Origin: Escherichia coli
GTDB lineage: Bacteria > Pseudomonadota > Gammaproteobacteria > Enterobacterales > Enterobacteriaceae
DNA length: 63,217 nt
Strand: one strand, 5' to 3'
NCBI RefSeq assembly: GCF_003334255.1
Contig: NZ_QOWU01000026.1
The notes below the pieces were generated by a model. That model was not told where the DNA came from and did not search any database. It saw only the letters and a program-made list of their open reading frames with translations. Positions 59,218 through 61,355 of this stretch are shown piece by piece; the first letter of the stretch is position 1; every line of letters starts with the position of its first letter. The translations under genes were made by a program, and so were the position numbers.

Positions 59218-61355
59218 ATGCTGCCAGACCAGCGACCAGCGACCAGCGACCAGCGACCAGCGACCAGCGACCAGCGACCAGCGACCAGCGACCAGCGACC
59301 AGCAGTAAATCAAGAAAGTCTGTAAAATCTGTTGAGCCGGAAATTACCGAACTGGCGAACTCATGGCTTAAATCTTACAGGCTTGATTACAAGTTGCAGA
59401 ATGCATCACTTAACGGAGAGATCGATAACGCACTGGACGCTTATTTTTCGAAAAATGGCGGCGCAGGCGGTAATCGTCCCGACGTAAAACTCCTTGTTAA
59501 GGACAAATACGGCAAGCAGTATCCCGTTCTCATCGAGTATAAAGGCTACAAGGACAGGCTTATCAGACTTGGCAGCAACGGTATTATTGAGAACAAAGAT
59601 GCCAGAAAAGAATGGAATTTTAAAAATATTAATGGATACGCGGTGAATGGCGCAGTCCATTATGCCAACGCACTTCTTCAGTTCACCAATTACCCTGATA
59701 TTATTGCTATTGGTATGACCGGCTGGCGCGATGATGGTACAGGCGAACTGCATCATGAAATCGGCGTGTGGTACGTATCAAAGAATAATTTAGGAGCCGG
59801 ACAGAAGGTTGGTGAATTCACCGACTTATCGTTCCTTGCTGACAAAAATGTTGATGGATTTCTCAACAAGATAAAGCTGCTTAATCTTCCTCCCGAAGAA
59901 CTGGAAAAAATCAAGGCCAGCAAAGAGGAAGAGATAGACACGCGACTTTCCCGTCTGAATAACGATATTTACCAGAATGAAAAGGGGCTTGGTGAAAGCG
60001 ATCGTGTTTACCTTGTTGTGGCTACCGTTATTGCAACGTTGGGGATTCCGGGAAAGTTAGCACCGCTGGATAAAAAAGAACTGACCTCTTCAACGGAGGA
60101 GGACTTGCGTGATGGTGATATTATTTTCAGGAAAATAAGGAATTTTTTAAGGCTGAAAGCTGTTCCTGAAACAAAAAGAGAAATGATTTTGCGCTCGTTG
60201 CAAAATACGCTGTGGACTGAAAACATTAACAAACCAGTCAACGGTGAAAGCCAGTTAAAGCGCGTGTTTGTTAAAGTTGTTGATGATCTTGGGGAGTATT
60301 ACAAAATTGGACTGACCACCGATTTTACGGGCAAACTGTTTAATGAGATGTATCGCTGGCTTGGATTTACGCAGGACAAGCTCAATGACGTCGTTCTGAC
60401 ACCACCTTATGTTGCCACATTGCTGGCACGACTCGCCAGAGTAAACAAAGATTCCTATGTGTGGGATTTTGCTACAGGTTCTGCGGGATTGCTTGTGGCT
60501 GCAATGAATGAAATGCTCATTGACGCCAGAGAAAATATTCACTCACCGAACGAACTACAACTTAAGGAAGCGCAAATCAAGGCTGAACAGCTTCTTGGCC
60601 TTGAGGTGTTATCCAGTATTTATATGCTGGCCATCCTGAATATGATTTTGATGGGGGATGGTAGCTCGAATATCCTCAATAAAGACTCGCTGGCCGATTT
60701 TGACGGCAAGTATGGATTTGGGAAAACAGGAGAAAAATTCCCTGCGGACGCATTTATTCTCAATCCTCCGTATTCAGCTAAAGGTAACGGCATGATTTTC
60801 GTGCAGAAGGCGCTGTCGATGATGGATAAAGGCTATGCTGCAGTGATTATCCAGAGTTCAGCTGGCACAGGAAAGGCTACGGAGTACAACAAAAAAATAC
60901 TCAAGGAAAATACCTTGCTGGCAAGCATCAAAATGCCTGCGGATCTGTTTATTGGTAAATCAAGCGTTCAGACGTACATTTACGTTTTTCAGGTAAAAAT
61001 TCCGCATAACGCGAAACAGGCTGTTAAGTTTATCGACTTTTCCAATGACGGCTACGCTCGCTCTAATCGCAAAAAGGCAAGAAACAATCTTGTTGATGCC
61101 GATCGTGCAAAAGAGCGTTATCAGGAGGTTGTGGATCTGGTTCACTTCGGGAAAGGTTGCCTTAATATCTTTACGGAGGATGAATATTTTGAGGGAACAA
61201 TCGATCCTGATAGTGGTGAGGACTGGAATCAGACCAGGCCAGTAGATGCTAGGCCAACGCTGGAGGATTTCAAAAAGACGGTAGGTGATTACCTTGCATG
61301 GGAGGTCTCGCAATTACTGAAAAAACAAGGTGAAAACAATTTTGCGGGAAAGTAA
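59218..61355 (+). CDS. Putative phase-variable restriction-modification A subunit: N-terminal nuclease-like region plus gamma-class N6-adenine methyltransferase (BcgI-A-like); frame interrupted at repeat tract as sequenced
   Basis: Long ORF 59394..61355 (653 codons from TTG) with motif I DFATGSAGLL and motif IV NPPY; N-terminal ..RPDVKLLVKDKYGKQYPVLIEYKG.. PD-ExK-like; SD+ATG at 59218 is in the +1 frame, separated by the 7-bp repeats. Confidence 0.6.
59230..59299. repeat. Heptanucleotide tandem repeat (CAGCGAC x 10)
   Basis: Ten perfect 7-bp units between ATG 59218 and the long methylase ORF; unit length not divisible by 3. Confidence 0.95.

Follow-up and report, generated by a model that had tools for sequence, protein, structure and literature searches.

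How can a restriction-modification (R-M) gene of an Escherichia coli prophage be expressed when a perfect array of heptanucleotides stands between its start codon and its conserved body and leaves the two in different reading frames? The question is raised by the 3' part of a 63,217-nucleotide stretch of E. coli DNA (contig NZ_QOWU01000026.1 of RefSeq assembly GCF_003334255.1), called here, over its whole length, the window, in which eleven copies of GACCAGC lie at the 5' end of a gene for the fused nuclease-methylase (RM) subunit of an R-M enzyme. The tract is very probably a slipped-strand translational switch, that is, a contingency locus, of this subunit. Three observations carry this reading: the tract is polymorphic in unit length over an intact open reading frame (ORF) among related prophages, repeat-free homologues start just before an SVEP motif, and the TTG codon at 59394, the first conventional start in the frame of the body, is CTG in other alleles.

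The tract, its start codons and the body of the gene

The elements on which the argument rests lie within a few dozen nucleotides of one another, followed by the gene body:

59205..59210, plus strand: Shine-Dalgarno (SD) sequence AAAGGA, 7 nt 5' of ATG 59218, abutting ATG 59210 and kept in all aligned alleles
59210..59212, plus strand: ATG1, opening MILCCQTSD(QRPATSD)n in the third frame, in frame with the ORF at tract length 1 mod 3
59218..59220, plus strand: ATG2, the native start (MLPD...), in frame with the ORF at tract length 0 mod 3 (9, 12 and so on units)
59227..59303, plus strand: tract (GACCAGC)11, 77 bp, the proposed slipped-strand switch, which encodes the QRPATSD peptide repeat in any frame
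59304..61355, plus strand: body of the RM (alpha) subunit, with an N-terminal PD..EYK nuclease and a gamma-class N6-adenine methyltransferase (DFATGSAG, NPPY), stop TAA 61353-61355

Tandem Repeats Finder reports a perfect tract at 59227-59303, with a period of 7, 11.0 copies, 100% matches and a score of 154. The ten CAGCGAC units counted at 59230-59299 in the initial annotation of this locus are found both by direct reading and by that program, and they and the eleven copies of GACCAGC are one tract in two registers. A perfect heptamer of 11 copies cannot arise by chance in 63 kb. The rest of the anatomy described in that annotation held up equally well. The SD sequence can be read directly 7 nt upstream of ATG 59218, and the ORF list confirms that this ATG is out of frame in the window, reading MLPD(QRPATSD)n to a TAA at 59323-59325. 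Direct reading and the ORF list agree that the long ORF (about 2.1 kb) is open from the TGA at 59211-59213 to 61355, and that its earliest ATG, GTG or TTG is TTG 59394 (653 codons), before which no SD is seen on direct reading and after which there is no in-frame Met for about 107 codons. The frame arithmetic, by which one unit more or two units fewer would fuse ATG 59218 to the long ORF, is also correct. The annotation was silent on the second ATG at 59210, in the third frame, which in the window runs to a TAA at 59306-59308; with no spaced SD, this ATG is probably a weak start or unused.

The repeat is therefore laid out as in known SSR (simple sequence repeat) contingency genes, being perfect, with a unit not divisible by three, and lying between a start and the conserved body. 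Replication slippage would add or remove 7-bp units and, because 7 is not a multiple of 3, each slip would put the body in another frame. At a tract length of 0 mod 3, ATG 59218 would be fused to the body (ON) and the protein would carry an N-terminal (QRPATSD)n tail. At 1 mod 3 the body would be in frame with ATG 59210 and, for want of a spaced SD, probably weakly expressed or OFF; at 2 mod 3, as written in the window, the body would have no start codon (OFF), and the activity would presumably be lost. In E. coli, MutS-dependent repair leaves loops of more than about 4 nt uncorrected. Slippage intermediates of 7 nt thus escape mismatch repair, which would explain how such a tract can be unstable in a repair-proficient host.

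Whether the switch has anything to act upon depends on where translation of the body begins, and here the codons between the tract and TTG 59394 are informative. Repeat-free homologues from Neisseria, Providencia and Methylophilaceae (72% identity, 677-686 amino acids (aa)) begin a few residues before SIEPNIADLANGWLKSY, which corresponds to SVEPEITELANSWLKSY of the window, directly 3' of the tract. Their starts lie 3-10 residues before the SVEP motif, and more than 60 full-length representatives of the family (32-66% identity) all start M..S(I/V)EP. Seven residues between the tract and TTG 59394 are invariant (L18, N20, W22, L23, S25, L28 and Y30), and the differences between alleles in these 30 codons, which are conserved as protein, fall mainly at third codon positions. 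The PADLOC family profile begins 21 codons 5' of the TTG. An AlphaFold (AF2) model built with 40 diverse sequences (predicted local distance difference test (pLDDT) 86, predicted template modelling score (pTM) 0.80) places a helix at residues 12-25 and a strand at 30-32, with a pLDDT of 96, within the part that a start at the TTG would remove.

These results bear directly on the idea that translation begins at TTG 59394, or at another internal start, regardless of tract length, the repeat being a mere 5' leader. Both the Prokaryotic Genome Annotation Pipeline (PGAP) and the record of phage PhiR12_3, a phage from ECOR13 that carries the same locus, annotate the coding sequence from TTG 59394 or later codons, and the short upstream ORFs ending at 59306-59308 or 59323-59325 could in principle permit re-initiation downstream. 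The annotators' choice was forced, since the OFF frames contain no other start. The TTG lacks an SD and is CTG in four of the five other alleles, and initiation there would cost the protein residues that are conserved and, in the model, structured. Initiation at TTG 59394 independent of the tract, which the initial annotation had named as grounds for giving up the switch, is on this evidence not credible, and an internal start of any kind is highly improbable.

Homologues in other species show what the gene looks like with no tract. Among 86 such loci, the N-terminus could be located in 84, and in none of the 84 was there a repeat tract at the 5' end. The tract is accordingly seen as a lineage-specific insertion into a working gene, found in the alleles of enterobacterial prophages, including those of Salmonella.

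Tract length and frame among relatives

An 821-bp region around the tract was compared with 5,426 complete E. coli genomes. The same locus is complete in 29 of them and in PhiR12_3, with flanks 94-100% identical and a matched span of 860-1588 bp, and in these 30 closed records the tract has 16-120 units and is perfect in 24. The unit counts are 16, 23, 23, 30, 31, 50, 54, 56, ~58, 58, 64, 65, ~65, 66, ~73, 76, 79, 80, 82, 83, 83, 83, 83, 87, ~89, 89, ~93, ~94, 99 and 120. Strains that share a study or a serotype differ from one another: the Symbioflor strains G1/2, G6/7 and G8 have ~93, 83 and 99 units, three O111:H8 strains have 56, 83 and 58, and three bovine isolates from Okinawa have 30, 23 and 23. 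The frames fall into 14 records with no start (OFF), eight with ATG 59218 in frame and eight in the frame of ATG 59210, a distribution that is not different from uniform (p ~0.3). Downstream, the 2.05-kb body is intact in every record examined, as is the frame of the specificity (S) subunit that follows it, and the protein WP_001178557.1 is annotated unchanged in 19 closed records. The whole-unit length differences in close relatives, the occurrence of both frame states and the intact ORF are what is expected of an SSR contingency gene. Invariance of the tract across related strains had also been named in the initial annotation as a reason to abandon the switch, and the records show the reverse, with lengths of 16-120 units that place an intact ORF both in frame and out of frame.

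Beyond the closed records, truly short alleles occur, with 2 units (L019, MLPDQRPATNKSRK...) and with 3 and 4 units (L029, P0004 and P0005), which extends the overall range to 2-120. The 2- and 3-unit alleles (L019 and L029) are in frame with ATG 59218, and for this reason ATG 59218 looks like the ancestral start. Database proteins in the ON form include P0004, P0006, P0009, P0015 and P0017, and PGAP annotates one ON protein of 739 aa. Several diverged alleles from E. coli and Salmonella all keep the tract. Many database proteins are labelled 'partial' and begin in the repeat, and the behaviour of short reads is as expected for a tract longer than the read. The tract may also be one of the MLVA typing loci (EH111-x, EHC-x), for which the one paper found lists no repeat sequences. 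The tract also attracts annotations on the other strand, where PGAP calls ORFs of up to 288 aa named 'YXWGXW repeat-containing protein' or 'hypothetical protein' that consist only of (WSLVAGR)n. These reverse-strand ORFs (59200-59313 on the minus strand of the window, and in L002-L041) look like annotation artefacts and were dismissed as a by-product of the repeat.

Several considerations weigh against the switch as described. Reversible switching within a clone is read from differences between genomes only, and so remains a conditional statement about what slippage would do in a culture. Exactly 83 perfect units recur in four records of different origin (PhiR12_3, G6/7, O111:H8 strain 7-32 9A and UCPROB-002), from which either the tract is stable over some epidemiological time or a single prophage has spread recently. 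In six of the 30 closed records the tract length is not a whole number of units: single nucleotides are deleted inside a unit in L015, L016 and L040 (gacagc) and in L013 (gaccaccagc), L002 has a longer imperfection (gaccgcaccagc), and L041 has a partial terminal unit (terminal gacc). These are either consensus errors of long-read assembly or real, stabilising interruptions, and because they may be errors, the frame calls in those six records are unreliable. An enzyme in the ON state would bear a QRPATSD tail of 40-280 residues, and its activity is putative. A scan for promoters between the upstream hok gene and the RM gene found no convincing promoter dedicated to the R-M cassette, so that the RM gene may be expressed only by read-through from the late transcript. 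BcgI, the Type IIB enzyme to which this one is compared below, methylates hemimethylated sites only (PMC3592466). If the prophage enzyme is BcgI-like, a slip from OFF to ON in a lysogen would be self-restricting, which a simple, benign ON/OFF model fails to explain.

A uniform frame distribution is, in addition, the same result that a neutral, unselected microsatellite would give. In the neutral case the repeat would have run away and inactivated an acquired gene, there would be no selected switch, and the frames would reflect drift. Records with ATG 59218 in frame are not enriched, the tracts reach 840 bp, far beyond the needs of a switch, and PGAP's spurious 'YXWGXW repeat' calls over the tract fit equally well. 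Drift of this kind is hard to reconcile with a 2.05-kb body and an S frame that are intact in all records, or with a protein that is unchanged in 19 of them. Alleles whose proteins are 85-87% identical share the SD, both ATGs and the first codons, a perfect tract requires ongoing slippage or homogenisation, and the tract has been retained in each of the diverged E. coli and Salmonella alleles. The neutral explanation is thus considered very unlikely, and slipped-strand switching remains the preferred account of the tract.

The number of expression levels that such a switch might have is a separate matter. Two start codons 5' of a repeat tract can give a three-level pattern, as in lic1 of Haemophilus influenzae. 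Here too there are two ATGs in two frames, 8 nt apart, 5' of the tract and kept in most alleles, so that expression might be high with ATG 59218 in frame, low with ATG 59210 in frame and nil in the third frame. Gene callers do give proteins that begin MILCC... (P0005 and P0010), PGAP does likewise for strain 04-00955, and the ATG 59210 frame is the one found in eight of the 30 closed records. The position of ATG 59210 speaks the other way: it abuts the SD with a spacing of 0, so that initiation should be poor. In strain 48 it has become ATA, and there the tract of 120 units is in frame with ATG 59218, the start that the ancestral-looking 2- and 3-unit alleles use as well. Three graded levels are therefore regarded as rather unlikely, in comparison with a switch in which ATG 59218 is the start that matters.

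A further reservation concerns the state written in the window rather than the mechanism. At exactly 77 bp, the tract of the window has the shortest length in whole heptamers that reaches k=77, the value at which SPAdes commonly tops out with 150-nt reads. It may therefore have collapsed in assembly, the true tract being much longer: a de Bruijn-graph assembler would have gone round the loop of seven nodes no more often than it had to, and '11 units, OFF' would then say nothing about the source strain. All 30 closed records have at least 16 units, and the 19 closed E. coli records with the right flank of the window allele, together with PhiR12_3, all have at least 31. None of the 5,426 complete genomes matches the window at a tract length of 77 bp, so that the window probably derives from a draft. 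Other draft contigs have tracts of 63, 112 and 133 bp, which match k=63, 111 and 127, and in seven of 13 IMG/VR contigs the sequence breaks off within the repeat. On the other side, the window allele is also met with 9 units (63 bp) in contigs whose assemblers normally work with a larger k, the 2-4-unit tracts certainly exist, so that short alleles are real, and a 150-nt read is long enough to have spanned 77 bp directly. A collapse is a serious possibility, though not the favoured one. The initial annotation had concluded that the 10 units it counted were OFF; that reading of the frame, as the sequence is written, stands, while the state in the source genome may be an artefact of the assembly. 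Confidence in the particular state written in the window is for this reason lower than confidence in the switch mechanism.

The enzyme and the junction of its subunits

What would be switched is an enzyme of a kind that present annotation conceals, as it truncates the RM gene and names it 'HsdM family'. Pfam finds N6_Mtase and a weak VRR_NUC in the RM protein, and PADLOC assigns it to REase_MTase_IIG from residue 11 onwards (E 3e-232). The residues P60 D61 ... E79 Y80 K81 and N488 P489 P490 Y491 are invariant, which accords with the N-terminal PD-(D/E)XK nuclease followed by a gamma-class N6-adenine methylase (NPPY) that is found in Type IIB RM subunits. A separate HsdS-like subunit with two target-recognition domains, the other part expected of a Type IIB system, is also there, though its frame has no start codon. 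Sequence searches of the PDB, with the single RM sequence and with a 12-sequence profile, gave no match even at E 1, so structural relatives were sought by fold comparison. Nearly full-length alignment with the RM model was obtained for no PDB chains but those of BsaXI RM (about 610 columns, E 1e-13). The PhiR12_3 record carries the remark 'BcgI alpha chain-like'. From motifs, profiles and fold, the system is predicted to be a BcgI/BsaXI-like Type IIB R-M system.

Two other assignments were tried and rejected. For a Type I HsdM, the TIGR00497 score of 36 bits compares with a cut-off of 242.75, an N-terminal nuclease domain is present, and none of the annotated flanking genes (Q, hok, a small ORF and a DUF6645 gene) is named hsdR. 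For a Type III Mod, no such family is among the Pfam, PADLOC and NCBIfam hits, and the neighbour is HsdS-like and not res. The initial annotation had proposed a methyltransferase gene with a mod-like switch. Of this the switch mechanism is retained, while the plain methylase or Type III Mod gives way to a fused nuclease-methylase with an S partner. RM proteins of about 70% identity occur across Clostridia, Bacteroidota, Neisseria, Pasteurellaceae, Campylobacterota, Spirochaetes, Gracilibacteria and Saccharibacteria, and such identity across distant phyla points to an unusually recent and wide horizontal spread.

The S frame poses a question of its own, for the following elements meet at the end of the RM gene:

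61346..61352, plus strand: slippery heptamer G_GGA_AAG in the RM frame, immediately 5' of the RM stop, a candidate -1 frameshift site
61349..62509, plus strand: S (specificity, beta) frame, -1 relative to RM and open from 61334, with two Pfam Methylase_S domains and the PADLOC assignment Specificity_II
61358..61396, plus strand: stem-loop with arms at 61358-61370 and 61384-61396, 13 bp, 5 nt 3' of the heptamer

The RM gene ends GCG GGA AAG TAA. The conserved N-terminal peptide of S, VNSPLSDKLRSVEWGEFRIGD, stands before the first canonical start of its frame, TTG 61415, and PGAP begins the gene further on still, at GTG 61424. The hairpin of the window has a folding energy of -23.3 kcal/mol (z -5.9). 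A scan of one genome per species yielded 80 loci with RM genes of about 70% identity, from Firmicutes, Bacteroidota, Proteobacteria, Spirochaetes, Campylobacterota and bacteria of the candidate phyla radiation (CPR), and among them 68 distinct junctions. GGGAAAA or GGGAAAG lies directly before the stop in 63 of the 68; three others have AAAAAAA, which brings the junctions with a heptamer at the stop to 66, and the remaining two have GGGAAAG one codon earlier. The first codon of the -1 frame is ATA in 40 junctions, GTA in 24 and ATG in only three, and the (V/I)(E/K)WGE(Y/F) motif is usually 5' of the first canonical start. In an alignment of 65 sequences, the 12-13-bp hairpin is paired in 96.4% of cells, as against 35-48% in slid controls. 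Both sides of a pair have changed in 42 cells, which none of 500 shuffles reached, and the most variable pair is C-G in 26 sequences, U-A in 21 and U-G in 14, and never C-A (Fisher p 2e-7).

In three other E. coli and Salmonella alleles, whose RM C-terminus differs, A_AAA_AAG lies one or two codons 5' of the stop, and a different stem occupies the place of the hairpin. Natural in-frame fusions of RM and S also occur among the homologues, and one of them, P0122, aligns with the -1 frame of the window from codon 6 after the junction (E 7e-37). The features that mark a -1 frameshift site are thus found together: a heptamer in phase at the overlap, a covarying structure 5 nt downstream, and an S frame that has no start codon and yet a conserved 5' part. 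No Rfam family was found at the RM/S junction, and a literature search that was limited in coverage, and is weak evidence, found nothing that links frameshifting to R-M specificity subunits. Judged on these sequence features, S is probably made as a -1 frameshift extension of RM. Ribosomes would slip by -1 on G_GGA_AAG at the end of RM into the S frame and produce a predicted trans-frame peptide ...FAGKVNSPLSDK.

The three junctions with ATG introduce another way in which S might be made. They keep a true ATGA overlap (L046/L048, L072 and L092), which means that re-initiation coupling exists in the family, and elsewhere S might be started by termination at the RM stop and re-initiation at an overlapping codon that is not canonical, AUA or GUA having taken the place of an ancestral AUG of AUGA. 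The product would be free S. The 40 junctions with ATA have a near-cognate start, and the hairpin could occlude the start region of S until RM has been translated. GTA, found in 24 junctions and in the window, is two mismatches away from AUG, and the X_XXY_YYZ heptamer is kept in phase even where the RM C-terminus differs (A_AAA_AAG). A 5-nt spacer and a stable hairpin are the canonical geometry of -1 frameshifting, and the natural in-frame fusions of RM and S fit the same mechanism. Re-initiation is held to be unlikely, and the -1 frameshift is preferred to it.

Under frameshifting and re-initiation alike, S translation depends on ribosomes that have translated RM, and the 5' tract would then gate the whole enzyme, so that nuclease, methylase and DNA recognition would be governed jointly by a single tract. 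The proposed pay-off would be bet-hedging of superinfection defence, of progeny methylation, or of both. We lean, if only a little, towards a wider statement as well: that a widespread Type IIB family (about 70% identical, in at least six phyla) makes S only as a -1 frameshift extension (G_GGA_AAR, 5-nt spacer, covarying hairpin), and that its enterobacterial prophage members additionally acquired a start-proximal heptamer tract of up to 120 units that switches restriction, modification and recognition together. If this is true, the efficiency of frameshifting would set the RM:S ratio of an (RM)2S holoenzyme.

A second repeat lies inside the S gene, where a 24-nt tandem repeat (2.2 copies) at 61832-61883, in the central coiled-coil region, doubles an 8-residue unit (IEELEAAHIEELEAYL). 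The homologue P0122 has one 8-residue unit fewer than the S of the window. In Type I HsdS subunits such as those of EcoR124I/II, the number of such units determines how long the spacer of the recognition site is, and by analogy the 24-nt repeat may be a specificity-changing polymorphism.

Prophage setting and comparison with known systems

Lambdoid and Shiga toxin (Stx) phages match the window from about 38.3 kb onwards, up to its end, and its first 38 kb or so has almost no matches to phage records. The genes follow in the order helicase, primase, DUF1367, NinG, NinH, Q antiterminator, hok/sok, the long ORF and the HsdS-like ORF, and in related records the HsdS-like ORF is followed by a small ORF, a DUF6645 gene and the late genes. 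The R-M cassette is thus located downstream of Q and hok in a lambdoid prophage, in the moron position that is held by the stx genes in Stx phages. Two features lie immediately upstream:

58685..58712, plus strand: sigma-70-like promoter TTGAAA-16-TAGAAT, 10/12 matches, overlapping the end of the Q gene, a candidate late promoter pR'
58719..59043, plus strand: hok/sok toxin-antitoxin locus, with the sok RNA family at 58719-58893 (Rfam, 118 bits) and the hok ORF at 58888-59043 (Hok/Gef annotation)

The sigma-70-like site is weak, one having been found where 0.8 would be expected. Homology common to thousands of E. coli prophages stops near 59113, about 100 bp 5' of the ATG. Positions 1-234 of the query match 4,600 genomes, and past that point only 29 genomes continue, so that the R-M cassette is taken to have its left edge there. 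A possible intrinsic terminator at 59118-59182, in the interval from hok to the RM gene, was considered and rejected, as the fold is no better than that of shuffled sequences (z -0.86) and the terminator scan was silent. Just 5' of the SD and ATG 59210, and extending across them, there is an imperfect 17-bp direct repeat (TCAAAAAACGTTGATTT / TCATAAAAGGATGATTT) at 59183-59217; its core is kept between alleles, and it could be a regulator binding site or the relic of a duplication. Just 3' of the S gene, the small RNA family STnc100 of Rfam gives a strong match (149 bits) at 62696-62912, and a terminator-like hairpin at about 62575-62600 stands between the two.

The phase variation of E. coli that textbooks describe depends on inversion of DNA (fim) or on Dam methylation (pap, agn43), contingency loci based on repeat tracts are held to be a trait of host-adapted pathogens with small genomes, and to our knowledge SSR contingency loci are not considered part of the E. 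coli repertoire. The carriers of the present locus are lambdoid prophages of commensal, probiotic (Symbioflor) and Shiga-toxin-lineage strains. Should the tract switch in culture, populations of lysogens would be a mosaic of restricting and non-restricting, methylated and unmethylated cells, and the phage that they release would be of mixed methylation. This would bear on superinfection exclusion, on horizontal transfer, on methylome-based typing and on the motif calls made from Pacific Biosciences (PacBio) and Oxford Nanopore Technologies (ONT) data. There is a practical side as well, in that short-read assemblies break or collapse at the tract and annotation pipelines cut short and misname the gene. 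Should the frameshift-linked S be confirmed, restriction enzymes would join the few cellular genes that use programmed -1 frameshifting, and there would be a simple account of what fixes the subunits at a ratio of 2:1.

SSR-based phase variation of R-M genes is familiar from the Type III mod genes of Haemophilus, Neisseria, Helicobacter and Moraxella, from the Type I hsdM tract of H. influenzae and from the poly-G Type IIG genes of Campylobacter, and the tracts of mod genes have up to about 40 units. Phase-variable methyltransferase and R-M genes of this kind have been surveyed (PMC7383803, PMC10123105). As in those genes, a perfect repeat whose unit is not divisible by three stands near the 5' end of the coding sequence, after the start codon and ahead of the conserved body; related genomes differ by whole units, which puts the body in frame or out of frame, and the ORF is intact in the OFF states. 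Unlike the SSR mod genes, the prophage tract has a heptamer as its unit, in 16-120 copies in the closed genomes compared here. The host is E. coli or Salmonella, and the carrier is a moron in the late region of a lambdoid prophage. The product is not of the Mod family: it is a Type IIB RM fusion, in which nuclease and methylase would switch together, and there is a second ATG in another frame. Literature searches, limited in coverage and weak as evidence, found nothing on SSR-switched R-M genes of E. coli or of prophages, and nothing relevant on the repeat itself (its 14-mers and QRPATSD) or on phase-variable Type IIB/IIG enzymes.

The Type IIB enzymes BcgI and BsaXI are (RM)2S assemblies (PMC3592470, PMC3592466, PMC11997821). 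As in theirs, a PD..EXK nuclease at the N-terminus of the prophage RM precedes a gamma-class N6-adenine methylase, and the S is HsdS-like with two target-recognition domains. The catalytic Glu53 of BcgI is in the same kind of N-terminal PD..EXK motif as is found in the RM of the window. No sequence similarity of the RM of the window to any PDB chain was detected, and for the prophage enzyme both the 2:1 stoichiometry and cutting to either side of a bipartite site are putative. A second difference lies in S, which here has no start codon and seemingly depends on a -1 frameshift, whereas the papers on BcgI and BsaXI describe A/RM and B/S as separate subunits.

For the frameshift itself, the models are the dnaX gene of E. 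coli, with A_AAA_AAG and a hairpin, and the G/GT tail chaperone of phage lambda, with G_GGA_AAG. The junction of the prophage resembles both in having its heptamers (of either kind) in phase, a 5-nt spacer, a stable downstream hairpin, a 0-frame stop at the site and a downstream ORF with no start. As in dnaX and G/GT, the candidate product would be the short protein lengthened at its C-terminus into a fusion, in a fixed proportion to the unextended form. What sets the junction apart from both is that the presumed fusion would unite the catalytic with the specificity subunit of a restriction enzyme, and that the cassette, a candidate site, is conserved from Firmicutes and Bacteroidota to CPR bacteria.

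The closest parallel among phages is in lytic coliphages, for which a preprint describes homopolymer-tract contingency loci in T2 and T4 and says that such loci had not been reported in phages before (bioRxiv 10.1101/2025.10.21.683753). The prophage locus shares with them hypermutable repeats in a phage genome, frameshifts that would be reversible and progeny that would be heterogeneous; it differs in that a long heptamer array is found in a temperate prophage and would gate a defence and modification enzyme. Set against these systems, the switch has the working principle of the SSR tracts of mod and hsdM genes, and differs from them in unit size and extreme copy number, in host, in carriage by a prophage, in the type of enzyme and in its second ATG. 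The frameshift cassette is the more novel item of the two.

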